Positions 16,010 to 62,640 of a stretch of 64,000 nt of DNA are shown here, piece after piece. Positions within the stretch are counted from its first letter, which is position 1. The number at the start of each line of letters is the position of its first letter. A model generated the notes under the pieces. It was given only the letters and a program-made list of their open reading frames with translations, searched no databases and was not told the origin of the DNA. Source of the stretch: a phage; the NCBI GenBank assembly GCA_014687725.1, contig GCA_014687725.1_4094.1, one strand, 5' to 3'. Made by a program: the position numbers and the translations under genes.

Positions 16010-16215
16010 AAACTATAACACGAACCCAATCATACGGTCTTATCTTGAAATACATGGACTTAATGGTGGATATCAGCAAAGACCTGCCTAAAACTGAAAT
16101 TGAAGTTGCAAGAGCAGAGATCCGCATGTTGGCTGTACTGAACACAAACCATCAGGAAGATTATGTTGAAGAATGGATTCGATTTTTAATAGAAGATATT
16201 AAGAGTAAACTATGA
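16006..16215 (+). CDS. family A paralog
   Basis: motif LNTNHQED; ATGA overlap. Confidence 0.65.
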   Translation: MKTITRTQSYGLILKYMDLMVDISKDLPKTEIEVARAEIRMLAVLNTNHQEDYVEEWIRFLIEDIKSKL

Positions 16216-16427
16216 TTATTATAGAAAACTCATATCAATATACTAAACGCATCGCTGCCAGACAACTTGAAATCCTCATAATATACGAAGAGACTTCTGA
16301 TTTAAACTTAGCCGAGGTATTGGAAAATGAAATACTTTTGGGTGCATTCTTGGGAACAGACTATCAGGAGTATTATGAGGAAAAGTATTTGTCATCTCTA
16401 GAGAAATACATCAGGAGCAAATTATGA
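16212..16427 (+). CDS. family A paralog
   Basis: motif LGTDYQEY; ATGA overlap. Confidence 0.65.
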   Translation: MIIIENSYQYTKRIAARQLEILIIYEETSDLNLAEVLENEILLGAFLGTDYQEYYEEKYLSSLEKYIRSKL

Positions 16428-16636
16428 TTATATTAACACCAGAAGAATATAAGAAACGTTTCAATTCTGTCCAGACTGAAATATTACTTATATACCTTTC
16501 AAATGCAGACCTTAACTTATCAAGGGCAATGGAGAAGGATTTACTTATGGGTGCATTTTTGGATACAGACTTTCAGGAGTATTATGTAGGGAAATACTTA
16601 ATTGAACTTCAGAACTACATTAAGAGTAAACTATGA
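16424..16636 (+). CDS. family A paralog
   Basis: motif LDTDFQEY; ATGA overlap. Confidence 0.65.
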   Translation: MIILTPEEYKKRFNSVQTEILLIYLSNADLNLSRAMEKDLLMGAFLDTDFQEYYVGKYLIELQNYIKSKL

Positions 16637-16860
16637 AACATTTAAGTAATATTGAGAAGATGAGAATTATCATTGATGCATTAAACAAATACGATACCCT
16701 TTTACAAATAAAAGGTTTAACTCGATTGGAACACAAGATAAACACCACCGATGTACGCATGTTGGCTGTACTGGGGACGAACTTTCAGGAAGAGTATGTT
16801 GTTGCACACATAGTTGCACTCACTAATTACATAATGGACAAATGTAATGAACATCATTAA
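16633..16860 (+). CDS. family A paralog
   Basis: motif LGTNFQEE; ATGA overlap. Confidence 0.65.
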   Translation: MKHLSNIEKMRIIIDALNKYDTLLQIKGLTRLEHKINTTDVRMLAVLGTNFQEEYVVAHIVALTNYIMDKCNEHH

Positions 16861-17071
16861 TAACTTTGAATACGAGGCCCGTGCTAAGAGTGCCAGAAAA
16901 AAAGAGAACACCATTTACTTCACTATGATGTACTTACAATGGACTGAAATTGAAGAAAAGGTTGCTGAAGTATGGATGTTGGAATTCATGGGGACGCAGT
17001 ATCAGAATAGGTTTGCGGGTGAGTATATCAATGTTCTTATGAAACAAATAGAAAGAAAGGAAAAGAACTAA
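16847..17071 (+). CDS. family A paralog
   Basis: motif MGTQYQNR. Confidence 0.65.
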   Translation: MNIINNFEYEARAKSARKKENTIYFTMMYLQWTEIEEKVAEVWMLEFMGTQYQNRFAGEYINVLMKQIERKEKN

Positions 17072-17229
17072 TGGTTTTCATTAACATATCTGACCAACTC
17101 GATACTAAACTAGAAGTCGAGCAGAGTGAGGGATGGATGCTGTACTTTCTTGGAACTTCTCATCAGAATTTTTATATCCATGAACACATAGTTGCACTCA
17201 AGAATTACATTATGGACAAATGCAAATGA
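17071..17229 (+). CDS. family A paralog, N-terminally shortened copy (52 aa)
   Basis: motif LGTSHQNF; C-terminus HIVALKNYIMDKC repeats that of the 16633-16860 copy; TAATG overlap; below track cut-off. Confidence 0.4.
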   Translation: MVFINISDQLDTKLEVEQSEGWMLYFLGTSHQNFYIHEHIVALKNYIMDKCK

Positions 17230-17483
17230 AATACTTAACACAAGATGAATATTCACTTAGAATTCGAAAGCTCACCCCAGAAGCAAGAGTAATCTACGAT
17301 GACCCCACCCTTACATGGAACCAAATGCGAGCTAAAGTTAATGAGCTATGGTTGCTGTACTTTATGGGGACTCAATATCAAGATAAGTTTTGCAAAGAAT
17401 TTGTCGATCAATTAATGAATGTTATACAGGATAAACTAGATGAATATTGGCTCGCAAAACATGAAGACTTTATCAGGAGTTGA
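17220..17483 (+). CDS. family A paralog
   Basis: motif MGTQYQDK. Confidence 0.65.
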   Translation: MQMKYLTQDEYSLRIRKLTPEARVIYDDPTLTWNQMRAKVNELWLLYFMGTQYQDKFCKEFVDQLMNVIQDKLDEYWLAKHEDFIRS

Positions 17484-17712
17484 GTATCAAACTGCCCTCT
17501 TCTCTCTTATTAACACCCTTAGAAAAAACAATGCATTACATGGTGCACCTGAAGTGGATGTTATCAACGGTGATGTTTATCTTATGAAATTCATTGGAAC
17601 AAACTATCAAGATCTGTTCATTCAACGATACTTGGCAGCATTAAGAAACCAAATCCAATATAAAACCCGTCAAGCCCAAAGAGAATGGAAGAGACAATGC
17701 GACAAAGACTAA
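17461..17712 (+). CDS. family A paralog
   Basis: motif IGTNYQDL; start uncertain (track 17440). Confidence 0.6.
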   Translation: MKTLSGVEYQTALFSLINTLRKNNALHGAPEVDVINGDVYLMKFIGTNYQDLFIQRYLAALRNQIQYKTRQAQREWKRQCDKD

Positions 17713-17945
17713 ATCACAAAATGTATTGTAAACTATTACAAACACTGGCACAGAAACACTATGACACCGTATCTGAAATATTACCCTATGATATCATGCG
17801 TTTAATTCATAGTGAGGCCGAGATGCTTGTACTGATGAGAGGGACTGATAAAACAGCAATAGCCAGATCGATTGAGCAATATATTGATGCACACTGCCAA
17901 CACATGAGAACCGAAATCTGGAGGAAAGAGAATGATAATCCTTAA
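17685..17945 (+). CDS. family A paralog (divergent)
   Basis: motif region MRGTDKTA; tandem position. Confidence 0.55.
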   Translation: MEETMRQRLNHKMYCKLLQTLAQKHYDTVSEILPYDIMRLIHSEAEMLVLMRGTDKTAIARSIEQYIDAHCQHMRTEIWRKENDNP

Positions 17946-18147
17946 TGAGTATCAGTATCATTGGAGGTTACAAACTATCAAATCAAAAGTGTATAGTATT
18001 GTGTTAAACAAATCTATTGCACAAGAGGACAAATGTGTTATAATAGCTGAAATGAAGTTGGGTGTATTCGTAGGGACAAACTATCAAAACATCTACACTG
18101 ACGTATTATTAAGTTCCTTACGTAACAAGGTGGTATCCAAAATATGA
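17932..18147 (+). CDS. family A paralog
   Basis: motif VGTNYQNI. Confidence 0.65.
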   Translation: MIILNEYQYHWRLQTIKSKVYSIVLNKSIAQEDKCVIIAEMKLGVFVGTNYQNIYTDVLLSSLRNKVVSKI

Positions 18148-18362
18148 GAAATTTACAAGGCTTTGAATACATCAGACTCCTGAAAACATGTGGAAGCAGA
18201 AGGAGAATGATATCAAGCGATAAGAGCATCCAAGCTAACCTTAAGCACGCACTAGTAACTGAACTCTATGTAGGTGCACTCTTAGGCACAAACTATCAAC
18301 AAATGTATGTAGATCTATGGATTGACGCTCTACAGAAAGAGGTTAAAAGTAAATGCAAATGA
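18144..18362 (+). CDS. family A paralog
   Basis: motif LGTNYQQM; ATGA overlap. Confidence 0.65.
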   Translation: MRNLQGFEYIRLLKTCGSRRRMISSDKSIQANLKHALVTELYVGALLGTNYQQMYVDLWIDALQKEVKSKCK

Positions 18363-18571
18363 TTAATTTAAGTAAAGACGAATTTTATGTTATACTGGCG
18401 AAAACTTATCCAGCACGTAAGGCCGTTTATGATAGTCACATTATTGAACCCTCAAAGAAGTTGATTTTAGTAAATGAGATAAAGATGCTTTCAGTCTTAG
18501 GAACAAACTATCAAGAGAATGCTGTACTGATGTTAATTGATGCCCTCCAGCGAGAGGTTAAACGTAAATGA
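18353..18571 (+). CDS. family A paralog
   Basis: motif LGTNYQEN. Confidence 0.65.
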   Translation: MQMINLSKDEFYVILAKTYPARKAVYDSHIIEPSKKLILVNEIKMLSVLGTNYQENAVLMLIDALQREVKRK

Positions 18572-18798
18572 AAATGATTCATTTAACTTACCATGAATAT
18601 CAAAAACGTTTAAATGCATCCAGAGATATAAGGATTCAAATATTCAATAACAAAAGATTGAAGCCTGATATCAGAAAAATCAAAATTATAGAAGCAGAGT
18701 TATGCAACTTTCTAGGGACCAACTATCAGGCAGGTAAGGTAAAAAACTATCTTAGAGAACTAATGAATAGTATTGAAAATAAATGTAAGGGTAATTAA
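18568..18798 (+). CDS. family A paralog
   Basis: motif LGTNYQAG; ATGA overlap. Confidence 0.65.
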   Translation: MKMIHLTYHEYQKRLNASRDIRIQIFNNKRLKPDIRKIKIIEAELCNFLGTNYQAGKVKNYLRELMNSIENKCKGN

Positions 18799-18799
18799 C

Positions 18800-19039
18800 A
18801 TGAAAATGATTAAATTATCTCAAGCAAAATATAAAGAACGCCTGGTGAAAATTGCACCTGGACTTAATGAAATCCATCACGGAGAAGTCATTAAACACGG
18901 AAATAAGATGATTATGAAACTTGAGTTAAAGGTGGGTGCATTCATAGGAACAAACTATCAGGAGTATTATGTAGATGAATACATAATCGCACTTAAGAGA
19001 TACATTGGAAGAAAACTATATCTACAAACTAAAGAATAG
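18800..19039 (+). CDS. family A paralog
   Basis: motif IGTNYQEY; ATG 18800 right after upstream TAA (track TTG 18773). Confidence 0.6.
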   Translation: MKMIKLSQAKYKERLVKIAPGLNEIHHGEVIKHGNKMIMKLELKVGAFIGTNYQEYYVDEYIIALKRYIGRKLYLQTKE

Positions 19040-19068
19040 TATTGAAAATAAATGTGAGGTTGATGAAC

Positions 19069-19332
19069 ATGCAAATGATCAATTTAAGTAAAGATGAATA
19101 TACCGAGCGTATGACAAAAATTACGCACAAACGTAATACAATCTATCACAACCCAGAAATTCAACACAGTAAGAAAATGATTATGATGCGTGAGTTAAAG
19201 ATGGGTGTATTCTTAGGAACAAACTATCAAGATACAGAAGTAAATCGCTTAATCGCGGAGTTACTACTGGAAATCAGAGGTAAGCTGTACTTTCATCAAA
19301 TGACCCAACCACTGAGGTGTACTAAGAAATGA
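19069..19332 (+). CDS. family A paralog
   Basis: motif LGTNYQDT; start uncertain (track TTG 19042). Confidence 0.6.
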   Translation: MQMINLSKDEYTERMTKITHKRNTIYHNPEIQHSKKMIMMRELKMGVFLGTNYQDTEVNRLIAELLLEIRGKLYFHQMTQPLRCTKK

Positions 19333-19544
19333 TCAACATCACATTGCAAGAAAGATTCATCCGAATCAACTATGCAATTACCAAATTAGATGCTACTATA
19401 GGATTCCAAAGTCTACCATACAAAACCAGATTGTTATTAGAGTGTGAAGCTAAGTTGGGTGTACTGTTAGGGACGCAACACCAACAACGATATGTGGAAA
19501 TCTGGATTGACCTTTTAACCCAAAATATATATGAGAGAATGTAA
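19329..19544 (+). CDS. family A paralog
   Basis: motif LGTQHQQR; ATGA overlap. Confidence 0.65.
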   Translation: MINITLQERFIRINYAITKLDATIGFQSLPYKTRLLLECEAKLGVLLGTQHQQRYVEIWIDLLTQNIYERM

Positions 19545-19775
19545 ATGCAAAATGAAATGATATACTTAACGAATGAAGAATTTCAAGAGAAGATGTTAAA
19601 AACCAAAAACATTACTCTTAAGTTCGTTCCAAATCAATCAATATCTGAAGTATCTGCAAATGTATTGTTTCAGAAGCTACCATACGTTCTTGGAACTGAT
19701 AAACAAGAATTTATGGTTCAAAATATGATTGAACATCTTATAATGAGTATTAAGGAAAAAGTTAATGCAAAATGA
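19545..19775 (+). CDS. family A paralog (long-N variant)
   Basis: motif LGTDKQEF. Confidence 0.65.
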   Translation: MQNEMIYLTNEEFQEKMLKTKNITLKFVPNQSISEVSANVLFQKLPYVLGTDKQEFMVQNMIEHLIMSIKEKVNAK

Positions 19776-20019
19776 AATGATATACTTAACCTATAATGAA
19801 TACGTCGAGAGATTAGTTCGTGCCAAGAGATATACCAATAAACGTCCAATTGACCTAAACCAAACCCCAGCAGAAAGGAGTGCAGAAGTATTATTCCAAT
19901 CACTACCATATCTTCTGGGAACTGATAGACAAGAGGAATATGTTGCACGTATGATTAGATATCTTAAAATCACTATTAAGGAAAAAGTAAATGCAAATGA
20001 AATACTTAACAGACGATGA
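19765..20019 (+). CDS. family A paralog (long-N variant)
   Basis: motif LGTDRQEE; first 33 nt identical to the 19545 copy. Confidence 0.65.
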   Translation: MQNEMIYLTYNEYVERLVRAKRYTNKRPIDLNQTPAERSAEVLFQSLPYLLGTDRQEEYVARMIRYLKITIKEKVNANEILNRR

Positions 20020-20242
20020 GTTAAAAGAACGACTAATTAAATCAAGAAAACATACAAATCAACTTCCAAACGACACAAACAAGTCTCCAGCGGAAAGGAG
20101 TGCAGAAGTTTTATACATTCAACTCATGTACTTTCTTGGCACTGACAGACAAGAGTATTACATTGAAAGTATGCTTCGATATCTTAAATTCTCTATAAAG
20201 GAAAAGATACATGATCAAGTATTTAAAAATCCTAACAGTTAA
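19991..20242 (+). CDS. family A paralog (long-N variant)
   Basis: motif LGTDRQEY. Confidence 0.65.
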   Translation: MQMKYLTDDELKERLIKSRKHTNQLPNDTNKSPAERSAEVLYIQLMYFLGTDRQEYYIESMLRYLKFSIKEKIHDQVFKNPNS

Positions 20243-20453
20243 TGAATATCATAAGATTGTAATGAAAACTAATAGTGCTTACGCTAAAAAATCAAACCCA
20301 AAGTACATACTGGAACACACATTTGAAGAACGTCAATTAGCTTTAGTTGAAGCAAAACTTCTTGCACTATTAGGAACAAACTATCAGGAAGAATACAATA
20401 GAAAACTAATATACCTTTTAACTAAACATATAAGAAAAAGAAAAAATGCATGA
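20211..20453 (+). CDS. family A paralog
   Basis: motif LGTNYQEE. Confidence 0.65.
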   Translation: MIKYLKILTVNEYHKIVMKTNSAYAKKSNPKYILEHTFEERQLALVEAKLLALLGTNYQEEYNRKLIYLLTKHIRKRKNA

Positions 20454-20680
20454 AACACTTGACAGATGATGAACATGGGCTTATAGTAATGGATGTAATC
20501 AACATCGAATACAAAAAGTTGATACGCTATCGTTGTTATGAAGATAAGCAACTCGTTCTAGCAGAACAGAAGTTGTTTCGACTCTTAAACACAAACTACC
20601 AAGCACAATACGAAGAATCGTATATGTACCTTTTGGCGAGGAAAGCAAAAAGAGATTATGAAAATTTTAAGCAAAGGTGA
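20450..20680 (+). CDS. family A paralog
   Basis: motif LNTNYQAQ; ATGA overlap. Confidence 0.65.
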   Translation: MKHLTDDEHGLIVMDVINIEYKKLIRYRCYEDKQLVLAEQKLFRLLNTNYQAQYEESYMYLLARKAKRDYENFKQR

Positions 20681-20879
20681 TTCAGTAATATTACTTATAG
20701 AGAGTTCAAGTAAATTCTTAAACATAACACTGTCTGATATAGATGAAGATGACAAAGAAGTACTGAGAGCAGATTTAAGAGTACTGTTACATATCGGAAC
20801 AAACCTACAAGAAGAATATGTAGAGTGCTACATCAATGAACTTAAAGAATCAGTACTGAGAAAATGCAAATGCAAATGA
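20658..20879 (+). CDS. family A paralog
   Basis: motif IGTNLQEE. Confidence 0.65.
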   Translation: MKILSKGDSVILLIESSSKFLNITLSDIDEDDKEVLRADLRVLLHIGTNLQEEYVECYINELKESVLRKCKCK

Positions 20880-21097
20880 AAATCATTACCGATGTAGAAT
20901 ACCTAACAATCATAAATGGACTGTTTTTGAAGCTCTTCGTCATTAACACATCAGATATACCAGATATGGATAAAATTATTAAGAGAAATGAAGTCTATGT
21001 TCTAGCTACCCTTGGAACGAACTATCAAGAACACGACATTAAAGATTATATTAATACACTTAAACGAGCTATTGAACTAAAATGCCAAAACCACTAG
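20864..21097 (+). CDS. family A paralog
   Basis: motif LGTNYQEH. Confidence 0.65.
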   Translation: MQMQMKIITDVEYLTIINGLFLKLFVINTSDIPDMDKIIKRNEVYVLATLGTNYQEHDIKDYINTLKRAIELKCQNH

Positions 21098-21297
21098 GAA
21101 CAGCAGAATACATTGAACTCATGGGATTACACTTCTCATCCTTTCAGAAACTTATGCGAGAATCAAAGAATGATTTAGAATATACCATCAGAGGTTCCGA
21201 TTTAAGAATGCTTCTCACCCTAGACACAGATTCCCAAGAGCGATTTGTCAATGAGCATATTAGAGCACTTTTAATGGAAATTAAAAGTAAACTATGA
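21082..21297 (+). CDS. family A paralog
   Basis: motif LDTDSQER. Confidence 0.65.
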   Translation: MPKPLGTAEYIELMGLHFSSFQKLMRESKNDLEYTIRGSDLRMLLTLDTDSQERFVNEHIRALLMEIKSKL

Positions 21298-21509
21298 AGA
21301 TAATATCAAACCAAGAGTACTTGGCACTATTCAGGAAGAATAATCACAAATATATGGCACTTGATTCAAGAACTGATATAAGTGAACTTGAAAAAAATCT
21401 TTTGCGTTCAGATATGATAGTACTGACACTCTTAGGAACACAGCATCAAGAGAGAACTGTTAATTCATACATAGGTATTCTTATACAGATAGTACAGGAA
21501 AAGATATGA
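21294..21509 (+). CDS. family A paralog
   Basis: motif LGTQHQER; ATGA overlap. Confidence 0.65.
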   Translation: MKIISNQEYLALFRKNNHKYMALDSRTDISELEKNLLRSDMIVLTLLGTQHQERTVNSYIGILIQIVQEKI

Positions 21510-21727
21510 GAATCATAACACAACAAGATATTCTTAAGTTCACAAGGGTTCATGCATCTGAATTTGATGCTATATTATCAAAAAGTTACAATGACCCTTA
21601 TACACAAGATGTACATTACAGTGAATTATGGATGTATATACTTTTAGGTACAAATAAGCAAGAGCAAGCCGTACAGAAGTATTTGACAGCTTTACGTGAT
21701 GCTACTGCTAATGGAGTATGTGTTTAA
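21506..21727 (+). CDS. family A paralog
   Basis: motif LGTNKQEQ; ATGA overlap. Confidence 0.65.
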   Translation: MRIITQQDILKFTRVHASEFDAILSKSYNDPYTQDVHYSELWMYILLGTNKQEQAVQKYLTALRDATANGVCV

Positions 21728-21728
21728 T

Positions 21729-21971
21729 ATGAAAGTACTGACAGAACTAGAAATGTATCATAGATTTAATAAGTACTATCATTTACTTAAGCCTATACAG
21801 AGGATTAAATGTCCATTTGAAGAGAAACAGGTTTTAATCTATGAGCACAAGTTCTTTGTATCATTAGGTACAGATCAACAAGAGTACTATTTGACGTTGT
21901 ACTTGATTACATTAATAGATTTAATTCACTATAAAACCAAACAAGCTAATAAAGAGAAATATGAAAACTAA
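21729..21971 (+). CDS. family A paralog
   Basis: motif LGTDQQEY; ATG 21729 just after upstream TAA (track 21696). Confidence 0.6.
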   Translation: MKVLTELEMYHRFNKYYHLLKPIQRIKCPFEEKQVLIYEHKFFVSLGTDQQEYYLTLYLITLIDLIHYKTKQANKEKYEN

Positions 21972-23297: not shown

Positions 23298-23490
23298 TCA
23301 AGAATGGAAGACCCAAAAGTACAGGGAATTCAACAGGAATTTTACAAAAGATGCATTGAATTTAAAAACAACAGAGTTTGATATGTTTATTTTTCTTGGA
23401 ACACGTTCACAAGAACAATTTGTTCATTATTATATAAATTCGTTGCGAACGGAGATAGTATGCAAAACACAGGGTATTATAAAAAGGTAA
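23272..23490 (+). CDS. family A paralog (island inside family B block)
   Basis: motif LGTRSQEQ; TTG start with SD GGGAGA. Confidence 0.55.
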   Translation: MKSIYKTINQEWKTQKYREFNRNFTKDALNLKTTEFDMFIFLGTRSQEQFVHYYINSLRTEIVCKTQGIIKR

Positions 23491-23726
23491 ACCAATATTT
23501 GTACGCTACAAAGTACAGGGATTTTTGTTTAAAGGGTGGTGATGAAGATTTTTCTTTGCGATTATCAGAATTTAATCTGTTATTTTATCTTGGTACAAAA
23601 GAACAAGAAGAAATGGCACAGAAATTTATCAAGCACCTTGTACAAAAAATTAATATGCAAATTTTGATGCTTAAGATACAGAATGAGATAAATGAATATG
23701 AATCCAGAAATAGTTCAGGATCTTAA
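23460..23726 (+). CDS. family A paralog (island)
   Basis: motif LGTKEQEE; ATG with SD GGAG. Confidence 0.6.
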   Translation: MQNTGYYKKVNQYLYATKYRDFCLKGGDEDFSLRLSEFNLLFYLGTKEQEEMAQKFIKHLVQKINMQILMLKIQNEINEYESRNSSGS

Positions 23727-35813: not shown

Positions 35814-36346
35814 TGAAAGTTAACATCAATGACTTTGATGCATTACAAGATTTATCAAAAAAGATTCGCACCATTGTACCAGTACTCAAAAAATGCAGTA
35901 CTGGTTTAATCGATCCTAGTACTGTTGTTAATGAGAAGTACAATTTTCATTATGTATTACAGGGTACTGGGGCATTCCAGAAGTGTGAGGTGCGTGAGAC
36001 ACACGTAATTGATACATCATTGTTTTCTATTGGTGCACCTGTGTCGAATAATACTATTTTCCTAGACAACGCTGGAAATATTCAACAATTAACATTTAAG
36101 AAAAGGAAAAAGAACAATAACATTGGTGTGTATGCGATGAAGTGGGGTCAACCTGATTTGAAGCGTGAAATTCACATCCCTAAGTACAATTACAATGCAT
36201 TTGACGAACAGTGTTTTCAACTATCGTGTACTGACCCTGACTATGCTATCATTCAGTTCTATATGGAATTGCAGATAGCATTTAACAGTAATTTGTATAT
36301 TAACTTATTGGCGATTAACATTGATGAAGTATTCAAAAACATTTAA
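35813..36346 (+). CDS. family B paralog (divergent)
   Basis: motif FDEQCFQLSCTD; ATG 35813 (track GTG 35810). Confidence 0.55.
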   Translation: MKVNINDFDALQDLSKKIRTIVPVLKKCSTGLIDPSTVVNEKYNFHYVLQGTGAFQKCEVRETHVIDTSLFSIGAPVSNNTIFLDNAGNIQQLTFKKRKKNNNIGVYAMKWGQPDLKREIHIPKYNYNAFDEQCFQLSCTDPDYAIIQFYMELQIAFNSNLYINLLAINIDEVFKNI

Positions 36347-36542
36347 TCGAATTGAATACATGAGAACTGTGAGTGCAGTGTGGGACATATGGTTCACTAC
36401 TAAACCAAAAATGGATTACCATGACTTTAAGCTCTTGTTCTTCGTTGGCTCTAACAAACAGGATGTTGCAATGAAGGGTTATATTCAGCACTTACAGGAA
36501 CTAATCCAGAAGAGAATATATGAAAATAATAGACCAAAATGA
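36324..36542 (+). CDS. family A paralog (island inside family B block)
   Basis: motif FFVGSNKQDV; ATG 36324 (track TTG 36321). Confidence 0.55.
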   Translation: MKYSKTFNRIEYMRTVSAVWDIWFTTKPKMDYHDFKLLFFVGSNKQDVAMKGYIQHLQELIQKRIYENNRPK

Positions 36543-36711
36543 CATTGCTAAACTATTCAATATATATTCTACTAGAATGATGCAAACAGACTCATATAGT
36601 ACTGAATTCAAAGAGTTGAAAGTCCTGATGTACTTGGGAACCCAATATCAGGAACAAGTTATTTTGGAATATATTAATTCGCTGAAGAAGGATATCCGTT
36701 ATGTACGATGA
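36520..36711 (+). CDS. family A paralog (island)
   Basis: motif LGTQYQEQ. Confidence 0.6.
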   Translation: MKIIDQNDIAKLFNIYSTRMMQTDSYSTEFKELKVLMYLGTQYQEQVILEYINSLKKDIRYVR

Positions 36712-55089: not shown

Positions 55090-55611
55090 ATGTCGAAGAA
55101 GGATGCTTCGAAAAAACATTCAGTACATTTCAGTACTGGAAAGGACAACTGGACAACTCCCAAAGATTTCTTTGAAGATTTGGATGAGTTATGGGGATTT
55201 ACACTTGATGCTGCTTGTGTTGATGAGACTGCATTGTGTGATAACTATTTTACACCTGATGATAATTCTCTTGAACAAGACTGGGGAAAAAATATTGTTT
55301 GGTTAAATCCCCCATATAGTGATTTAAAAACTTGGTTAGCCAAGGCAGTAGATGCGTATAATAAAGGTGCTACAGTACTGATTCTAGTACCATCCAGGAC
55401 TGATACAATAGCATTTCAGGAATATGCAGCCAAAATATGTGATTGTATTTGTTTTATCAAAGGTAGATTACGTTTTGGTATTCCAGAAGAACCTGATAAG
55501 AAAACAGATTCAGCACCATTTCCTTCGTGTCTTATAGTCCTTGATAAGTACCTCACTACTGCTAAAATTAATTATCTTAAATCTCTCGGATTGGTGATGA
55601 AGAATCTATGA
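55090..55611 (+). CDS. DNA N6-adenine methyltransferase (phage Dam-type, NPPY family)
   Basis: WTTPKDFF, LNPPYS, VPSRTDT, GRLRFG blocks; SD AAAGGA. Confidence 0.85.
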   Translation: MSKKDASKKHSVHFSTGKDNWTTPKDFFEDLDELWGFTLDAACVDETALCDNYFTPDDNSLEQDWGKNIVWLNPPYSDLKTWLAKAVDAYNKGATVLILVPSRTDTIAFQEYAAKICDCICFIKGRLRFGIPEEPDKKTDSAPFPSCLIVLDKYLTTAKINYLKSLGLVMKNL

Positions 55612-56141
55612 AAGAAACATGTGTATTAACGTTTGGTCGTATTAATCCTGTACATCGTGGACATGGTTTAGTTTTTGAAAAGGCCAAAACATTACAAGAA
55701 CAGTACAATGCTGATTTAAAAATATATCTAAGCACCAGTACTGACAATATAAAAAACCCACTCCCACCTGAACTAAAAATGTATTATACAGAGGGATTCT
55801 ATCCTTCAGTGCAAGAGAACATCTACACAGAAGACAATCTATTTGATATAATGAGAGAACTGGATGGAAAGTACTTAGATGTTCTTTTCATTTGTGGTTC
55901 TGACCGTATTGATTCTTTTCAAAAAACTCTTGACATGTACAATGGTAAGTTGTATAATTTTTGTAGTATAAAAGCAATTCAGGCAGGTATTGACCGTAAT
56001 GTAAGTCAATATAGCTCAACACAAATGCGTAACTTCGCAAAAAATGAAGATTTTGATAGTTTTCGTGAGTTTTTACCTGGAAATGACGAGGACTTAAAAA
56101 TACAATTATTTGAAGACGTTATAAAATACATGAGGAAATAA
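55608..56141 (+). CDS. HxGH-motif nucleotidyltransferase (cytidylyl/adenylyltransferase superfamily, NMN adenylyltransferase-like)
   Basis: N-terminal TFGRINPVHRGH = (T/H)xGH signature; ATGA overlap with methyltransferase gene. Confidence 0.7.
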   Translation: MKETCVLTFGRINPVHRGHGLVFEKAKTLQEQYNADLKIYLSTSTDNIKNPLPPELKMYYTEGFYPSVQENIYTEDNLFDIMRELDGKYLDVLFICGSDRIDSFQKTLDMYNGKLYNFCSIKAIQAGIDRNVSQYSSTQMRNFAKNEDFDSFREFLPGNDEDLKIQLFEDVIKYMRK

Positions 56142-56143
56142 TT

Positions 56144-56437
56144 ATGTCAGTACTGTTCAAAACCAATCCAGTACTTTGGGTTCAAAATGAGCAATCAGGA
56201 TTTCGTTCCATCCATGTTGAATACAAAGGTAATACTGTAGTTGCAATTATTGCTAACAAAACTCTAGGAAACTGGACTGCACAGGTTGTTCCTATGGGAT
56301 ATTCTTACACATCTGATGAGGTACAATTCCTGGCTGAACTATATCGCCAAGTGCCGTTTATCATTAATGTACTAGAAGGTAATGATACATTATCACATGC
56401 AGATGTGATTAATTTTCTTGGAAACTTGCATGTGTGA
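56144..56437 (+). CDS. hypothetical protein (97 aa)
   Basis: ATG with SD GAGGAA. Confidence 0.65.
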   Translation: MSVLFKTNPVLWVQNEQSGFRSIHVEYKGNTVVAIIANKTLGNWTAQVVPMGYSYTSDEVQFLAELYRQVPFIINVLEGNDTLSHADVINFLGNLHV

Positions 56438-56717
56438 TGAAATAAATCTTACAGGATATTTTTTACAAGAATCAATGATTAAATTTAGTGAAAAATTTTC
56501 AGTACTGGATGGTATCGAAATGTGGCATGTCAAACCACTGTTCCACACTTTCAGTAAAGAGCACAAAATGTTATTGACTGAAGCGAGTAAATCAAATAAC
56601 ATATGTGAAATCAAAATTGGTGTAAATGTCTATAAAGGGATGGTTATCTTTTTTGACAATAACAGCAACTACTTTTATATTGTTAAGGAGCATTACGTTG
56701 ACAAATACAAATACTAA
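56430..56717 (+). CDS. hypothetical protein (95 aa)
   Basis: ATG 56430 (track TTG 56418). Confidence 0.55.
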   Translation: MCDEINLTGYFLQESMIKFSEKFSVLDGIEMWHVKPLFHTFSKEHKMLLTEASKSNNICEIKIGVNVYKGMVIFFDNNSNYFYIVKEHYVDKYKY

Positions 56718-57312
56718 TACATACTTCCGTTATCTTCGCTTAGGTCTTTCCCTACGTCCGATCCGTGGAAAGTGCGATTCACTCGCTGACCTTGACTATG
56801 CATATGCATTACATCATGAAGGTGTACAGTATGTATTGGGTGATTATGGTGAATTTGAAGAAACAAATGACAGTACTGGAATTAATGCTGGTGTAGAAAA
56901 TCTTAACAACATTGCTAACAGTTCTCGCCATGACATTGTGTTACAGATTCAAAACTTTATTGAGCAGCACACAGGTAAACGTGTTTGGTGCTATGTCGGC
57001 ACTGATGCACAAATGTCAATTTCATTCGGTAACGATGAAGGATATGTTGCACAGCTTATTATGGATTTTGAATCTGAAGAGAAGTTTTTAGAATTCAAAG
57101 AAAAGATTATTCAGTCACTTGTTGATATGGGTATCCCCGAAGATAAAATGCCAGAAGTTCAAAACATTGATGAATTTGTTTTGATTCCATCTGATGAGAA
57201 ATATGATGCAATGTTTACTGCTCTTAATATTCCAGGAGTTATTGTGGAGTACTTTGATGATGGTGATGATAGTATCTATATCGATCTAGATGACGATGAC
57301 GACGATGAATAA
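56698..57312 (+). CDS. hypothetical protein with poly-Asp C-terminus (204 aa)
   Basis: TTG 56698 with SD AAGGAG 7 nt upstream (track ATG 56626 would overlap upstream gene by 90 nt); tail DLDDDDDDE. Confidence 0.55.
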   Translation: MTNTNTNTYFRYLRLGLSLRPIRGKCDSLADLDYAYALHHEGVQYVLGDYGEFEETNDSTGINAGVENLNNIANSSRHDIVLQIQNFIEQHTGKRVWCYVGTDAQMSISFGNDEGYVAQLIMDFESEEKFLEFKEKIIQSLVDMGIPEDKMPEVQNIDEFVLIPSDEKYDAMFTALNIPGVIVEYFDDGDDSIYIDLDDDDDDE

Positions 57313-57318
57313 TGTACA

Positions 57319-57347
57319 TAGCCCGACATAAGTTCGGGCTATTTTTG
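57319..57347 (+). terminator. rho-independent terminator
   Basis: stem TAGCCCGA/TCGGGCTA + T5. Confidence 0.8.
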
Positions 57348-57358
57348 TAAGGGGATAT

Positions 57359-57634
57359 ATGAATTATAAAGTTCTACAATATACATACAGTGTTTTGTTT
57401 GATTTACATCACAATGGAAGATATCTCAATACAATACGAGAAAACACATTCACTCATACTATCTGGATTAATCACTTAATAATGATACGTGAATATTTTG
57501 TTAATAGTGAGATAATCATTCGTGGTAAAAAACAGAAGATAGAACAAGTTAATAGTTTTGGTGGTAAATTAGTGCTATCATTTATAGATAGTAATACTAA
57601 TGAAAGATATAGTATAGATTTGGTGGACATATGA
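57359..57634 (+). CDS. family C paralog
   Basis: N-terminus MNYKVLQYTYSVLFDL; SD GGGGA. Confidence 0.65.
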   Translation: MNYKVLQYTYSVLFDLHHNGRYLNTIRENTFTHTIWINHLIMIREYFVNSEIIIRGKKQKIEQVNSFGGKLVLSFIDSNTNERYSIDLVDI

Positions 57635-57897
57635 ATTATAAAGATTTCCTACTAACATACAAGATTATTCAAGATTTAGCACACGACAATGATAGCCCTA
57701 GTCTAGAAGACACATGCACTGAAATGATTCATACGATTCGTGGTAAGATTAAAAAAAAATTCAGTACTGTTATTATTGGTGATGACCATGCAGAATTTTC
57801 TGATATAATCATTAGACGTGATGGTAAAGTTGAGGTTCAGTACTACACTGATTTTGGATTTACCAGTATTCCGTTGGAGATATTCCCTTGGGATTAA
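57631..57897 (+). CDS. family C paralog
   Basis: N-terminus MNYKDFLLTYKIIQDL; ATGA overlap. Confidence 0.65.
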   Translation: MNYKDFLLTYKIIQDLAHDNDSPSLEDTCTEMIHTIRGKIKKKFSTVIIGDDHAEFSDIIIRRDGKVEVQYYTDFGFTSIPLEIFPWD

Positions 57898-58199
57898 ATT
57901 TAAATGATATACAATTCACTTATAAGATCCTATATGATTTGTATGATGTATACCTTGTTAGTAACAACATAGGTTCACATAACCGATCCAAAGAACAACC
58001 ATTTATTGATTTATATATTGAGTACTTAGATTCAGTAGGTGAATATATAAAAAAGAATTACAGTACTTTTATCGATGGAAATGATAAATTCGATTTCTAT
58101 GGTGTGCAATCATATAATGGTATAATCCATGTTCAATTTCAGGAAATAACCGATAGGGGATTTATCGAGATTAAAGTTGTGAAGTTGGTGAATTTATAA
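57888..58199 (+). CDS. family C paralog
   Basis: LNDIQFTYKILYDLYD; TTG start with SD GGAGA, no in-frame ATG nearby. Confidence 0.5.
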   Translation: MGLNLNDIQFTYKILYDLYDVYLVSNNIGSHNRSKEQPFIDLYIEYLDSVGEYIKKNYSTFIDGNDKFDFYGVQSYNGIIHVQFQEITDRGFIEIKVVKLVNL

Positions 58200-58209
58200 G
58201 AGGTTACAT

Positions 58210-58521
58210 ATGTTATTAAATGATATACAATTCACATACAAATTTTTGTATATCCAATACGCTACGGTTGATGCTGGAGAATATCTCTACAGTGAAATCT
58301 ATCGTTCGGTATGGATAAAGTTTTTGGATGAATTACATGAATATTACCATGATTTGTGTATAGTTCGTGATAATAAAATATACAAATTCCGCGATATTGT
58401 TAGTCATAGCGGTAAGCTACGATTGGAATTAAGTACTGATAGTGATGTTGATTGGATTGGTGTAAATTTACTGGAGTTGGAGAATGAAAAACAACTTAAA
58501 GGAAATACAAGTATTTTATAA
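58210..58521 (+). CDS. family C paralog
   Basis: MLLNDIQFTYKFLYIQY; SD AAGAGG. Confidence 0.65.
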   Translation: MLLNDIQFTYKFLYIQYATVDAGEYLYSEIYRSVWIKFLDELHEYYHDLCIVRDNKIYKFRDIVSHSGKLRLELSTDSDVDWIGVNLLELENEKQLKGNTSIL

Positions 58522-58768
58522 ATTCTTATACTTATCATATGTAAAAGATGAGTACTATGAAAGTGTGTATTATTTTTTATGGCAACATTACCGTACTATA
58601 GTAAGAGATTTATATATAGGAAAATCTATCATATACAATGGTGAAAAATGTATATGTACTGATGTCGTTAGTTTTAATGGTTCTTTAACACTGTGTTTCA
58701 GATGCGATAATAATAGTGGGTCATTTTCATTAAACGTATATCAGTTAGAAGGAATAAATTTTGAATAA
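58484..58768 (+). CDS. family C paralog
   Basis: LKEIQVFYKFLYLSY; 38-nt overlap with upstream gene. Confidence 0.55.
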   Translation: MKNNLKEIQVFYKFLYLSYVKDEYYESVYYFLWQHYRTIVRDLYIGKSIIYNGEKCICTDVVSFNGSLTLCFRCDNNSGSFSLNVYQLEGINFE

Positions 58769-58961
58769 ATGTCCATATTGTAACAGTACTCAATTAGCTC
58801 GTTTCCGTTTAGATTCAGACTGGGCGACTGGTGCTGGTGATTTCTTCCCTATTAATGATGATGCGGAATACACCGAAGAACAGCACAAAGATTTTGATAA
58901 ATCATGGCGACCTGACATTGAGTGCATTTATTGCCTTAATTGTGAGCGTGTTCATGACTAA
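58761..58961 (+). CDS. zinc-ribbon small protein (66 aa)
   Basis: CPYC...CLNC pattern; TTG start with SD AAGGA. Confidence 0.5.
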   Translation: MNKCPYCNSTQLARFRLDSDWATGAGDFFPINDDAEYTEEQHKDFDKSWRPDIECIYCLNCERVHD

Positions 58962-59217
58962 AGCTGAACTAATAGTTCATACATATAAAATGATATCAAG
59001 TACTGAGTTATCATATAGTGCAGATAATCCAGTACTGGATTATTTTGTTGAATTATTGAAAGAGCATTATATTGGTAAATCACTGAATATTAATAATATT
59101 AATTTCACTATAACGGATGTGGGACCAGGAAAAAACGTACTAATTGTATGTATTACTTCAACTGGTAACCCATTATACCCAATATCAGTAATTTTTGAGG
59201 TATTAGGTGATTTATGA
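58954..59217 (+). CDS. family C paralog
   Basis: ATG 58954 (track 58831 is out-of-frame overlap of zinc-ribbon gene); shares layout with 59214 copy. Confidence 0.55.
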   Translation: MTKAELIVHTYKMISSTELSYSADNPVLDYFVELLKEHYIGKSLNINNINFTITDVGPGKNVLIVCITSTGNPLYPISVIFEVLGDL

Positions 59218-59504
59218 ATATCATATTAATACAAAAAACATATACTCTACTGATGAAAGAATATACTAATACTTATGATGAAAAGTGCAGTGCAAATCAT
59301 AATATGTATGAATTCATTACTCAAGAGTACAGGGATTATATATATGCTGTGTTAGTTGGTAGATATTTCAGTACTAGAAAATACCCAAAACTTCAAATAG
59401 TTGATGTTTCTTTTTATTTCAATGGTCATATTACTATTCATAGTTTAGACCAAGATTCAACAACGTACTTAAACTTTTCATTTGATGAGGTAATATTTTT
59501 ATGA
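59214..59504 (+). CDS. family C paralog
   Basis: MNIILIQKTYTLLMKEY; ATGA overlap. Confidence 0.65.
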   Translation: MNIILIQKTYTLLMKEYTNTYDEKCSANHNMYEFITQEYRDYIYAVLVGRYFSTRKYPKLQIVDVSFYFNGHITIHSLDQDSTTYLNFSFDEVIFL

Positions 59505-59677
59505 GAACAGTATTTTTTATCTGGAGTCTTTTTTCATTGGCAGTACTGACAGTATGTGGGATTTGTTTCCTTTCATCAATTAATACTTGGTATATCAATT
59601 TACTATTTCCATTTGTCGGTGTTGGTTTAGGGTTTACTTTGCATAGTGTATGTAAGGATTACAATGAGAACAAATGA
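59501..59677 (+). CDS. small membrane protein (58 aa, two predicted TM helices)
   Basis: ATGA overlap; FFIWSLFSLAVLTVCGICFL and INLLFPFVGVGLGFTL segments; below track cut-off. Confidence 0.45.
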   Translation: MRTVFFIWSLFSLAVLTVCGICFLSSINTWYINLLFPFVGVGLGFTLHSVCKDYNENK

Positions 59678-59942
59678 AGTACTTATTGCTGAAACAATGA
59701 AGATGATTTACAATATCACGTCAGCACAGAATATGCCCTATCCAACTAAGTCTTTATTGAGGACTGTGTATCTGGGGATAGTACAGGAGTACTACAAATC
59801 CAAGCACCGAAGCATTATTAGTGTTTATCGTGATTATGAAAGGATTCGTATTTTATTCTGGAACAAGAATCGAGTACGTTCTGAATGTGACCTAGTGGAC
59901 TTTAAATTAGAGAATCTTTATTGCTATAAACAGGGACAATAG
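59664..59942 (+). CDS. hypothetical protein (92 aa)
   Basis: ATG 59664 with SD AAGGA (track GTG 59646). Confidence 0.55.
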   Translation: MRTNEVLIAETMKMIYNITSAQNMPYPTKSLLRTVYLGIVQEYYKSKHRSIISVYRDYERIRILFWNKNRVRSECDLVDFKLENLYCYKQGQ

Positions 59943-60000
59943 TTTAATTCATGATATAATAATGGGTAAGGAACAATAATTAACACAAGGAGTGTGTGAA

Positions 60001-60729
60001 ATGCTTGACCGTATCCGTTTCGCTACAGAGATGGCGAATGAATTAAACATGGCAAATTTCCAAATGTTAACATCAGTAATGGCTGAACATGCATGTGCTT
60101 ATTCTGTAAGTGGTGTGCAGTGTGGTCAGGAGAATATGTTAGCAGATGTTTATAGTGAAGTGCAAAGTAAGCAATATAGTGTAAAGACATATAAGGATAA
60201 GTTTGTTAGTCTTTATATGAACGAAGATATTGCCGAAGACCGTAAATTCACTGATTTTATTATTGAACGCCGAGTATCAGGTGTATCTAATCCTAATGCA
60301 TCAAGCGAGGAAGTTTTTGCAGAAGTACTGAAAGATATATACGAAAATGAATTAAAAAGTAAGAATCATTACAATGTACGTGAAACGAACACAGTGCTCT
60401 TGGGATATGATGAAGACGAAGAATACTATTATTTTCGTATGACTGAAGTTCCTTTTGAATACAAATCTCCATATACAACTACAGTGAAAGAATTTACTGA
60501 AAAAAGTAAAAACTTCATGAAGCATGAAGGAAATCGTTGTAGTATAAATGGTTATGACGAAAATGGCATTCACATTTATGAATGGGTTCACCCAAATTGT
60601 CAGACATACACTCGTTGCTTGAAAAAACGTTATAATTTAGAAGAGCATGAATCATTCTATTTTAAAGTTAAGAAGCAAGGTTATACTCGCCCCGCCGATT
60701 CTGAATTGATGGGTATGATATATTTCTAA
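60001..60729 (+). CDS. hypothetical protein (242 aa)
   Basis: ATG 60001 with SD AAGGAG (track GTG 59992). Confidence 0.7.
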   Translation: MLDRIRFATEMANELNMANFQMLTSVMAEHACAYSVSGVQCGQENMLADVYSEVQSKQYSVKTYKDKFVSLYMNEDIAEDRKFTDFIIERRVSGVSNPNASSEEVFAEVLKDIYENELKSKNHYNVRETNTVLLGYDEDEEYYYFRMTEVPFEYKSPYTTTVKEFTEKSKNFMKHEGNRCSINGYDENGIHIYEWVHPNCQTYTRCLKKRYNLEEHESFYFKVKKQGYTRPADSELMGMIYF

Positions 60730-60739
60730 GGAAACTTCT

Positions 60740-61021
60740 ATGGATTTTTATCTACACACATGGACATACGAACAATATATTACATTATATCTTGAAATTA
60801 TTAACACAGAACCTAGGTGTGGTTGTAGGTTCGCAGATATCATAAAAGAGTATGCTGACGAGTTCGAGTTTGTGTATCTTGGGTCTGATATATTTGTAAA
60901 AAGTGTAGGTAAAACCGGACGAATCACTGATATAGATTACGACACTGTTAGTGTGAATTTCTATGTTGATTTTCCTGATGCTGGCGTTGATGGTGTATAT
61001 TGTCTTTATGAAATAATTTAA
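60740..61021 (+). CDS. hypothetical protein (93 aa)
   Basis: Track ORF; followed by terminator. Confidence 0.65.
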   Translation: MDFYLHTWTYEQYITLYLEIINTEPRCGCRFADIIKEYADEFEFVYLGSDIFVKSVGKTGRITDIDYDTVSVNFYVDFPDAGVDGVYCLYEII

Positions 61022-61027
61022 ATTCTT

Positions 61028-61053
61028 AGGCCAGCGTTTGCTGGTCTTTTTTC
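61028..61053 (+). terminator. rho-independent terminator
   Basis: stem AGGCCAGC/GCTGGTCT + T6. Confidence 0.75.
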
Positions 61054-61065
61054 GCAGGTACAAAG

Positions 61066-61368
61066 ATGTTCAGTATAGATTTAATTAACAGTACTATCAA
61101 AATGTTGGCTGATTTGGTGAGACAATCCAATGGAACTTTATATCCATCAATGTATAAAATGTTTGACCGATACATCAAGGATTGTAACATATCATTATAT
61201 GGACTTGCTGTTGATATAGACGATTACTATGGAATTAATACTTCATATAAAACAGGAATTTTAATTGGTATTAATATAAAGATGGGGTATTTACCTTATT
61301 ACTGTATAGGATTACCAGATAATACTTTTGTAGAATATCCAGCCAGTACTATTAAATTAAGAGGATAA
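61066..61368 (+). CDS. hypothetical protein (100 aa)
   Basis: Track ORF. Confidence 0.6.
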   Translation: MFSIDLINSTIKMLADLVRQSNGTLYPSMYKMFDRYIKDCNISLYGLAVDIDDYYGINTSYKTGILIGINIKMGYLPYYCIGLPDNTFVEYPASTIKLRG

Positions 61369-61375
61369 AACTAAA

Positions 61376-61954
61376 ATGAATGTATTAGAATTAAGTACTA
61401 AGCTGATTAGTATGCGTAATGAGTGGTACGATTGGTTTTATAATGGTACTGATATGGATTTTTCAAAATATCCATTTATGGAATCAGGATGTGATGCAAG
61501 ATACCGCTGGTTGAGCAAAGATTGTTCTGGTTTACATATTCTAGTTGACGATAGTGGTCAGGGAATTATAAAAGATTTACTTCAAGTTGAACAACTCGTC
61601 CATGATAATTGGTGTGATAACGATCCATACCTTGGAAATATGATTTATGTAAGTGAAGATGATTGCATATTCGTTATCCAGCGTCATGGTAATTCTATGT
61701 TTTATGTAGCAGATAGCAGTACTCCAGAAGGTGCAGCAGCCGATGGACTTATGCCTAAGATTGATATATTGGAATTTGGATTACCTGAGCACTTCCAGAT
61801 TAGTACTTTATACGATATTCCACCACTTGAGTTCTTTGAAGAATTTAAATTGTACTACAATGATCTTCAAAAATTGAGTACTGATCGACGCATTGAAATA
61901 ACTGTTAAGTACATGGACGGAACGAAATTAACTGATACGGGGATAGAATTTTGA
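61376..61954 (+). CDS. family B paralog (outlier copy)
   Basis: motif GLPEHFQISTLYD. Confidence 0.6.
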   Translation: MNVLELSTKLISMRNEWYDWFYNGTDMDFSKYPFMESGCDARYRWLSKDCSGLHILVDDSGQGIIKDLLQVEQLVHDNWCDNDPYLGNMIYVSEDDCIFVIQRHGNSMFYVADSSTPEGAAADGLMPKIDILEFGLPEHFQISTLYDIPPLEFFEEFKLYYNDLQKLSTDRRIEITVKYMDGTKLTDTGIEF

Positions 61955-62640
61955 TTAAAGATTTAGATAGAATTTTATATGTACTAAGGGGTGTAATTAC
62001 ATTACATCCACAAATCAATCGAATTGAAAGTACATTTCAGTTGGAGTCAAGAGAAACTCCATATTCACATATATCAAATGTAGTTGGTTCACTCAGTACT
62101 GAAGACTCGTCTTACGATATTTGTGTATGTGAAGTACAACCAAGTTCGGATCTTGGATTTGCTATTTTTGATAAAGATCAAAATCTCATTAGTATGTTTC
62201 AGTGCAATAATCCTTTTTGGAAAACATGCCTGTATCCAGAGTGGGCTATGCTTGATCCAACCAAGAGTACCATTAAAGTTTATGACTCTAAAAATGATGA
62301 AGTCGTTATTGATTTGGATGAGTCAATGTCAGAGGAAGAACACTTTCAGCTAATGATGATGCGTGCTATGCCGGAATACAATGCAATGATTAACACTGTG
62401 CAATACATTAAGGATACCATGCCAGCGTTGCGTACACATGAGTTTTGTCATCCGGTATTGTATGAACATCTAGATTTAGACTTCAGTACTATTAAATTTA
62501 AAGATAGTGTTAAAAAATATATTCAAGAGAATGTTAAATTTGATTTTATTAGTACTATGAACAATAATCCAAAAACTAATTTTAGGCATCAGTACAATGA
62601 ATCTTTGTCTAATGGACGTGATACAAGTTGGTGGAAATAA
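61951..62640 (+). CDS. family B-like paralog (outlier copy)
   Basis: motif MSEEEHFQLMMMRAM; TTG start with SD GGGGA. Confidence 0.5.
   Translation: MIKDLDRILYVLRGVITLHPQINRIESTFQLESRETPYSHISNVVGSLSTEDSSYDICVCEVQPSSDLGFAIFDKDQNLISMFQCNNPFWKTCLYPEWAMLDPTKSTIKVYDSKNDEVVIDLDESMSEEEHFQLMMMRAMPEYNAMINTVQYIKDTMPALRTHEFCHPVLYEHLDLDFSTIKFKDSVKKYIQENVKFDFISTMNNNPKTNFRHQYNESLSNGRDTSWWK

Follow-up and report, generated by a model that had tools for sequence, protein, structure and literature searches.

A probable family of seven tandem paralogues arranged around two conserved genes in Asteriusvirus-type jumbo phages

The gene array

We analysed a 64,000-nucleotide (nt) stretch of phage DNA (NCBI GenBank assembly GCA_014687725.1, contig GCA_014687725.1_4094.1), hereafter 'the window', and focused on a plus-strand array of small genes at positions 57359-59942. 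A first inspection of the DNA (the sequence-only reading) had proposed that this array holds seven or eight tandem paralogues of ~90 amino acids (aa) with a common N-terminal motif, forming a mini-family separate from two others of the same window, families A and B. We call it family C. Over positions 56000-62000 the window shares 99.7% identity with Escherichia phages ECO103 4-12-1 and EC22.5-2, and 97.6-99.2% with JP4, UB, slurp01, G17, phAPEC6, 121Q and PBECO4. These close relatives of the window are ~350-kb jumbo myoviruses of the genus Asteriusvirus (121Q/PBECO4/G17 type), and the window itself belongs to a jumbo coliphage of this genus.

The array comprises eight open reading frames (ORFs), C1 to C8, that match coding sequences (CDS) labelled 'hypothetical protein' in G17, and two genes outside the family, called anchor genes here. 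From 5' to 3', the features are as follows:

57318-57342, plus strand: intrinsic terminator-like hairpin with a 9-base-pair stem, five G-C pairs and a T-tract, 16 nt upstream of C1; also a terminator in the G17 annotation; upstream edge of the array
57359-57634, plus strand: C1, 91 aa, phrog_32291
57631-57897, plus strand: C2, 88 aa, phrog_35943, the most divergent of the five core copies
57888-58199, plus strand: C3, 103 aa, TTG start, phrog_21004
58210-58521, plus strand: C4, 103 aa, phrog_21004, shared with C3
58484-58768, plus strand: C5, 94 aa, the copy chosen for modelling
58761-58961, plus strand: putative zinc-ribbon protein, 66 aa, CxxC...CxxC, first anchor gene
58954-59217, plus strand: C6, 87 aa, phrog_33961, distant member
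59214-59504, plus strand: C7, 96 aa, phrog_28826, distant member
59501-59677, plus strand: two-transmembrane (two-TM) micro-protein, 58 aa, second anchor gene
59664-59942, plus strand: C8, 92 aa, phrog_32563, forming its own small sub-family

The genes overlap at their junctions (-4, -10, -38, -8, -8, -4, -4 and -14 nt), with a single gap of 10 nt, and each start is preceded by a purine-rich Shine-Dalgarno-like motif. They form a single operon-like, tightly packed block.

Relatedness of the copies

Pairwise Smith-Waterman scores were compared with those of 400 shuffles and expressed as z. The sequence-only reading had allowed for the case that formal alignment would find no pairwise similarity. 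This is not so: C1 to C5 can be aligned with significance, at z 4.9-11.5 along the chain C2-C3-C4-C5-C1 (C2-C3, 10.1; C3-C4, 11.0; C4-C5, 11.5; C5-C1, 10.9; in addition, C1-C4, 7.8 and C1-C2, 6.4), and BLASTP E values of these core pairs are 2e-7 to 1e-5. The outer members gave lower values, namely 5.6 for C6-C5, 4.4 for C8-C6 and 2.5 for the best pair with C7. The zinc-ribbon and two-TM ORFs scored at null level against family C.

For profile searches we added members from the diverged syntenic regions of phages WPEC5, ph0011, A4, JNE01 and Turkey5 and of the metagenomic contigs L008-L012 and L018, and searched the iterated hidden Markov model (HMM) against the 596 six-frame ORFs of the window. 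Some C6 entries were trimmed of an artefactual extension. In the untrimmed first iteration this 33-residue N-terminal segment, an alternative frame of the zinc-ribbon gene, had given false matches such as L005 6831-7001; the trimmed rerun led to the same conclusions. A profile of C1 to C5 only ranked C7 (E 6e-4) and C6 (E 0.011) as the next two matches among the 596 ORFs, and orthologues of C7 (2e-4 to 6e-4) and of C6 type (1e-5 to 6e-4) also matched it. C6 further gave P 8.6e-5 in an hhalign comparison. After the addition of C6 and C7, the model converged on exactly C1 to C7 (E 2e-29 for C1, 1e-17 for C2, 4.5e-28 for C4 and 2.6e-29 for C5); besides these, no ORF of the 64 kb fell below 0.03 other than the borderline 61066 (0.005). 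Family membership was thus obtained with profiles built without the candidate's own orthologues.

An N-terminal motif had been described as common to all members. Its strict form, [ILVF]-Q-x-[TF]-Y-[KST]-h-h, was found five times when the whole window was translated in six frames, compared with a mean of 0.2 and a maximum of 1 in shuffled windows. All five occurrences lie at residues ~5-12 of C1 (LQYTYSVL), C3 (IQFTYKIL), C4, C5 and C7 (IQKTYTLL). The motif is nevertheless more degenerate than had been stated, as C2 (FLLTYKII) and C6 (LIVHTYKM) carry weaker versions and C8 has none.

By these comparisons C1 to C5 are related beyond doubt, and C6 and C7 join them by profile search; C1 to C7 are very probably one family of seven tandem paralogues. 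An alternative is that the resemblance is partly illusory, with only C1 to C5 related and C6, C7 and C8 being unrelated small ORFs alike in size and composition. The weak direct similarity of C7, the link of C6 to C5 alone, the separate PHROGs of C6 and C7 and the failure of C8 in the HMM test would all fit it. Nevertheless, the profile devoid of C6 and C7 ranks precisely these two next, together with their orthologues, C7 has the strict motif, and the controls, namely the zinc ribbon, the TM protein and families A and B, are null in the same tests. We therefore regard this alternative as quite improbable for C6 and C7; applied to C8, its odds are about even. Thus, seven copies of the original proposal stand, and the eighth ORF at 59664, about which it had hedged, is a possible member only.

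The PHROGs database splits the same proteins into phrog_21004 (C3 and C4), 32291 (C1), 35943 (C2), 33961 (C6) and 28826 (C7), all of 'unknown function' and with weak cross-matches. They are treated there as five unrelated families, in contrast with the single tandem family found here, and these five PHROGs should be merged.

Predicted fold and conserved positions

The AlphaFold2 model of C5 has a predicted local distance difference test (pLDDT) score of 78.6, with helices at residues 5-21 and 26-44 and strands at 48-51, 54-64, 67-74 and 78-84. The predicted fold of family C is an N-terminal alpha-hairpin of two helices followed by a C-terminal four-stranded beta-meander.

Column conservation was computed from 80 non-redundant members of the first, uncleaned HMM iteration. 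The highest values were found for T11 (88%), G66 (86%) and Y12 (79%), and the top conserved columns comprise T11, Y12, L15, Q9, I8 and D7 in helix 1 and V61, G66, L68 and L70 in the central hairpin. The loop between helices 1 and 2 and the last loops are the least conserved. The family signature consists of a helix-1 motif D-I-Q-x-T-Y-K-x-L combined with a hairpin turn S-[YF]-x-G-x-L-x-V.

One candidate assignment was rejected. C2 matched the PADLOC model REase_II at 6e-4, with weak Pfam matches to DpnI and DUF4928, which would suggest a restriction endonuclease of the PD-(D/E)xK type. However, this was the case for only 1 of 14 members, the catalytic motif is absent and there was no structural match.

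Distribution of the family

The search in related phages that the sequence-only reading had suggested was productive. Family C was found in 36 phage records, all from Escherichia or Salmonella phages of Asteriusvirus type, and diverged members occur in Klebsiella phage RaK2, as detailed below. We also searched 1.84 billion representative proteins exhaustively with a profile of 14 core sequences. This yielded 20 proteins at E<=1e-3. A repeat protein and one of 1241 aa are spurious; the other ~18 are 85-105-aa proteins of the same arrays. C1 to C7 are lineage-restricted, soluble proteins of ~90 residues. A search of a literature library found no paper on family C, its expression timing or its essentiality in an Asteriusvirus. 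The family is undescribed and unnamed, and a feature of this type is in itself ordinary. Copies that evolve and are exchanged rapidly beside conserved partners are common in large phages, where they have often been connected with host interaction.

The zinc-ribbon and two-TM genes

Both interleaved genes had been pointed out in the sequence-only reading, and both descriptions hold. In the putative zinc-ribbon protein encoded at 58761, the cysteines C4/C7 and C58/C61 do not vary among four diverged orthologues, the two knuckles lying ~50 residues apart. Its Pfam zinc-ribbon matches (PaaD, InsA, TFIIS and Lar) are all sub-threshold. Lar, a restriction alleviation protein, was considered and rejected, as it reached 12-13 bits only and generic zinc-ribbon models performed equally well or better. 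The zinc-ribbon gene is the most conserved of the block, with a ratio of non-synonymous to synonymous substitution rates (dN/dS) of 0-0.06; protein identity is 83-100% within the genus and 71% to ORF454 of RaK2. Its range covers exactly Asteriusvirus and the Klebsiella RaK2-like phages (45 records), and a collection of 5.8 billion proteins contains only six clusters of it, all unnamed.

A longer form of C6 starting at 58831 reads through the zinc-ribbon gene in another frame and is an artefact. The annotations of phAPEC6 (gp385c) and WPEC5 (CDS0556) omit the zinc-ribbon gene and have a 120-aa extended C6 in its place. The gene is therefore missing from some annotations because the artefactual long C6 was called instead.

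The two-TM ORF at 59501 has Kyte-Doolittle means over 17 residues of up to 2.2 for residues 3-27 and of ~1.6-1.7 for residues 31-51. Orthologues are present in all arrays, including ORF458 of RaK2 and L018 5713-5898.

A variable slot in a shared backbone

The array occupies a slot in a gene order that is common to Asteriusvirus, RaK2, GAP32, Munch and Serratia BF: a ~175-aa protein, Dam, a cytidylyltransferase-like protein, two proteins of ~95 aa each, a ~200-aa protein, the slot, a 242-aa protein, small ORFs, RnlA, further small ORFs and PseT. The slot alone differs. Its content in Asteriusvirus is family C with the zinc-ribbon and two-TM genes; in GAP32, Munch and Serratia BF the backbone is kept and the slot is filled by other genes. 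Family C was found between the ~200-aa and 242-aa genes, adjoining the zinc ribbon, in the window, G17, WPEC5, ph0011, A4, JNE01, Turkey5, L008-L011, L018 and RaK2. Homologues of the 242-aa protein in other genera share 59-68% identity with it and extend as far as Xanthomonas phage XaC1. In all, 71 records carry the protein, including Klebsiella, Cronobacter, Pectobacterium, Erwinia, Serratia, Yersinia, other Salmonella and Xanthomonas jumbo phages.

The RaK2 slot contains ORF452 and ORF453, the zinc ribbon (ORF454), ORF455 and ORF456, ORF457 and the two-TM gene (ORF458). Among 100 RaK2 ORFs, ORF453, ORF455 and ORF456 matched the family HMM at 4e-4, 8e-4 and 1e-4, respectively, and the segment '…TCKVIFDLAHN…' of ORF453 can be compared with '…TYKIIQDLAHD…' of C2. 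Diverged copies are thus arranged around the zinc-ribbon and two-TM genes in RaK2 too. The arrangement, with variable copies around two conserved genes, is therefore older than the split between the two genera.

Turnover and allele exchange

Paralogues within one genome are 23-35% identical and orthologues across genomes 60-99%; therefore, most duplications are old. Copy number ranges from 4 to 7. Five copies precede the zinc-ribbon gene in the window, WPEC5, ph0011 and A4, four in L018, three in JNE01 and Turkey5, and one in L009 and L010, which have five copies downstream of it instead. The four L018 copies (2988-4001) are recent and mutually similar (z 21-32). A trio of mutually similar genes follows the TM gene in the same contig (5899-6855), with no detectable similarity to C8 or family C; different small families expand in the same slot. 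In L011 (1096-1885), two C7-type genes with 52% identity flank an inserted DUF7205 gene, which represents a recent duplication of C7; no C8-type gene was called after the TM gene of this contig.

The array is decaying in the Salmonella SD phages (SD-6_S16, SD-15_S21 and SD-1_S14; array proteins P0028, P0030, P0032 and P0033), whose genomes measure 310-326 kb. Several copies are truncated in them, and P0028 is a fusion of the front of C2 with the end of C3.

Compared with ph0011, A4 and JNE01, the family C genes of the window are 29-74% identical or have no detectable counterpart; the corresponding identities are 83-100% for Dam, the zinc ribbon, the 242-aa gene and RnlA. The relationships form a mosaic, in which C5 shares 99% identity with its WPEC5 counterpart but 60% with that of ph0011, and C6 shares 82% with that of A4 but 30% with those of WPEC5 and ph0011. 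Even with G17, to which the window is 98.4% identical overall at the nt level, protein identity is 87% for C6 and 74% for C7. Synonymous divergence (dS) from G17 is 0.49 for C7 compared with at most 0.08 for its neighbours, and the C7 allele was therefore imported rather than mutated in place. The short imported segment corresponds to 58954-59504 of the window and 5955-6505 of the G17 region (L001). The same effect was seen for the Dam gene (55090-55611), with a dS of 0.58 between the window and G17.

The dN/dS values of C1 to C7 are 0.17-0.62, compared with 0.02-0.13 for conserved neighbours. Altogether, the array evolves by birth and death of copies, through duplication, deletion or fusion, and by the swapping of diverged alleles between phages, and the anchor genes and flanks stay conserved. 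The age of the copies, the conserved anchors, the extension to RaK2 and this mode of evolution go beyond the sequence-only reading.

DNA repeats are present within the array. Repeats of 26 nt lie at the 5' ends of C3, C4 and C5 (57900-57925, 58216-58241 and 58496-58521; 92% and 77% identical), and a 54-nt repeat (70%) covers the 5' ends of C1 and C2, including the ribosome-binding site (57353-57406 and 57625-57678). Elsewhere, these genes have diverged to ~27% identity at the protein level. We judge that the repeats can be explained by the conserved peptide motif and AT-rich codon usage.

C8 and possible remote relatives

Downstream of the array, the following features were identified:

60001-60729: 242-aa core gene, downstream edge of the variable slot
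60740-61021, plus strand: 93-aa ORF, downstream of the 242-aa gene, possible remote relative of family C
61028-61047, plus strand: second strong terminator-like hairpin, the next one downstream of the array
61066-61368, plus strand: 100-aa ORF, possible remote relative of family C

C8 was never significant against the family HMM, with E 0.45-1.8 among the window ORFs through all iterations. In the hhalign comparisons, the query alignment was aligned with that of the family, and column-shuffled versions of the query provided the null. C8 taken with its JNE01 paralogue (z 8.6 between the two) gave P 5e-4 over 69 collinear columns (z 5.5 vs shuffles, probability 31%). The ORF at 60740, not significant by HMM, reached P 6e-5 over 78 columns (z 9.9, probability 65%). 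Its neighbour at 61066, with E 0.0045-0.0056 by HMM, reached P 1.6e-4 over 53 columns (z 12.9, probability 50%), and a further ORF at 62642 gave P 0.007 over 43 columns (z 4.9). The zinc ribbon, the TM protein and families A and B remained near null, with P 0.19-0.44 and 1-2 columns (for family B, z 7.9 over 2 columns only).

The AlphaFold2 model of C8 (pLDDT 82.2) has helices at 3-19 and 28-47 and strands at 51-57, 60-66 and 72-76, an order of elements like that of C5. In BFVD it retrieved only its own 121Q orthologue, a weak test given that the C5 model matched its own BFVD entry at a TM-score of just 0.55. C8 is more conserved than C1 to C7, with dN/dS of 0.10-0.18. With similarity at the twilight level, C8 is thus a possible remote relative of family C, and the ORFs at 60740 and 61066 are possible remote relatives as well. 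An intermediate link between 61066 and the family, by way of gene L010_4200 in a diverged array, was considered and rejected, as there was no direct similarity (z 1.0-2.6).

In RaK2 (L013), ORF469 (8998-9261) and ORF471 (10294-10584), which flank pseT downstream of RnlA, gave matches of 6e-5 and 8e-5 to the profile of family C in a set of 100 ORFs. Family C may have dispersed relatives outside the slot.

Other tandem families in the window

The sequence-only reading had described tandem amplification as a general habit of this genome and family C as a separate expansion, and both views are borne out. All-against-all phmmer comparisons of the 159 window ORFs at E<1e-3 delineated two large clusters. 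Family A has 30 genes for proteins of ~65-90 aa, at 15585-21971 with three outliers in all, located in 23460-23726 and 36324-36711; three representatives had no Pfam match. Family B has 35 genes for proteins of ~100-190 aa, at 21961-46231 and 61376-61954, with no Pfam match. Its member at 61376-61954 is remote from the main B array and follows shortly after the family C region. Comparisons of family C with A and B by hhalign gave P 0.2 and 0.19, respectively, over 1-2 aligned columns.

Jumbo phages are known for tandem expansions of small ORFans restricted to one lineage; a ~35-copy expansion of a zinc ribbon has been described in Bacillus phage G (Iyer et al. 2021, PMC7824862). Like it and like families A and B, family C consists of tandem copies of a small ORFan in one phage lineage, with no assigned function. 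Unlike them, it has another sequence and fold, seven copies that are much older (23-35% identity), and a layout built around two non-family genes.

Possible roles

We favour an explanation that combines the family, its array and a repertoire of binders, and we give this whole a probability of roughly 0.55, a compromise figure. C1 to C7 would be non-virion proteins made inside the infected cell; mass spectrometry of phAPEC6 virions identified 62 proteins, and the orthologues gp383c-gp389c are not among them (PMC7247149, Table 1). The copies would share one scaffold, the exposed surfaces of which would have diversified into a repertoire of intracellular binders. Their targets might be variable host factors, effectors of host defence or one partner for all copies, for instance the zinc-ribbon protein, and they possibly act with the co-inherited zinc-ribbon and two-TM proteins.

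A role in host interaction or counter-defence as such is tentative. It is suggested by the small, soluble, non-virion nature of the proteins, their shared scaffold and variable loops, the raised non-synonymous rates, the changes in copy number, the exchange of alleles and the presence of Dam, RnlA and PseT among the neighbours. These three are established in T4 as means by which phages counter restriction and anticodon nucleases. RNA repair as a conflict system in jumbo phages has been discussed (PMC7824862).

Several observations weigh against this explanation. Searches of Pfam, NCBIfam, PADLOC and the PDB sequences with family C gave nothing above threshold, and homology thus provides no function. 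No sigma-70-like promoter was found between the terminator and C1. The zinc-ribbon and two-TM genes are linked to family C by co-location and shared phyletic range only. The deletions and fusions of the Salmonella SD phages imply that individual copies are dispensable. Finally, all dN/dS values of family C are below 1, so that positive selection is unsupported and relaxed constraint is equally possible.

Relaxed constraint is at the centre of another explanation, according to which the copies are dispensable, drifting duplicates at a duplication-prone locus, under weak purifying selection, with no specific individual function and heading for loss. It would account for dN/dS values 3-10 times above those of the neighbours, for the fusions, deletions and truncations in Salmonella SD phages, which have smaller genomes, for copy numbers of 4 to 7 and for the unrelated small families in the L018 slot after the TM gene. 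However, most of the 36 records retain the seven ORFs intact, and dN/dS is far under 1. Overall identity among the copies is <30%, yet their helix-1 motif and Gly turn show 80-90% conservation, and the arrangement survives between two genera. We thus consider mere drift unlikely.

The copies could also be regulators of transcription or host takeover, with a SH3/Tudor-like barrel docking on host RNA polymerase or another central machine and paralogues tuning successive stages of infection. The Tudor-like domains of CarD, Mfd and UvrD/PcrA, which dock on RNA polymerase, offer a parallel, and the AlphaFold model weakly resembles SH3/Tudor-like barrels. Family C has no sequence similarity to SH3-like small beta-barrels (Tudor, KOW, CarD/PcrA-type RNA-polymerase-interacting domains, Sm/Hfq), the canonical barrel has five strands and the family C model four, behind a helical hairpin, and the scores are too low to infer homology. 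We regard such a role as improbable. The IraD anti-adaptor, with a GpW/gp25-like fold (PDB 6od1_B), is another of the nearest known comparisons.

That the copies are assembly helpers or minor structural proteins of a complex virion with hair-like fibres, one paralogue per fibre type, is most improbable: Asteriusviruses do bear fibres of several types (PMC7247149) and small chaperones often escape detection, but none of gp383c-gp389c was detected in the 62-protein virion set, the genes around the array belong to nucleic-acid metabolism and not to a morphogenesis module, and zinc-ribbon and two-TM partners do not suggest fibre assembly.

Returning to the binder repertoire, a more specific version of it would make the array, the zinc ribbon and the two-TM protein a single counter-defence or host-takeover module of RaK2-like jumbo phages, in which each paralogue would neutralise a different variable host effector and alleles would be traded as hosts change. 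We regard this version as speculative and rather unlikely. It calls to mind the tandem arrays of immunity proteins by polymorphic toxins and the 'gene accordions' of poxviruses, in which small binding proteins diversify and change in number under conflict. In contrast with these, family C has no toxin gene nearby, resides in a virulent phage and consists of old copies. If the proposal were true, the module would represent a phage counterpart of the immunity genes that are arrayed in tandem in bacterial conflict loci.

Implications

No function is known for most jumbo-phage genes, and many of these occur in tandem families. The conserved anchor genes, the persistence across two genera and the clear natural variation give the family C array a modest added interest. 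It is small enough to be deleted or swapped, and its copy number and alleles vary over >40 sequenced phages, which makes it a practical system to find out what such expansions do. The natural variants of the array predict differences in host range that can be tested.

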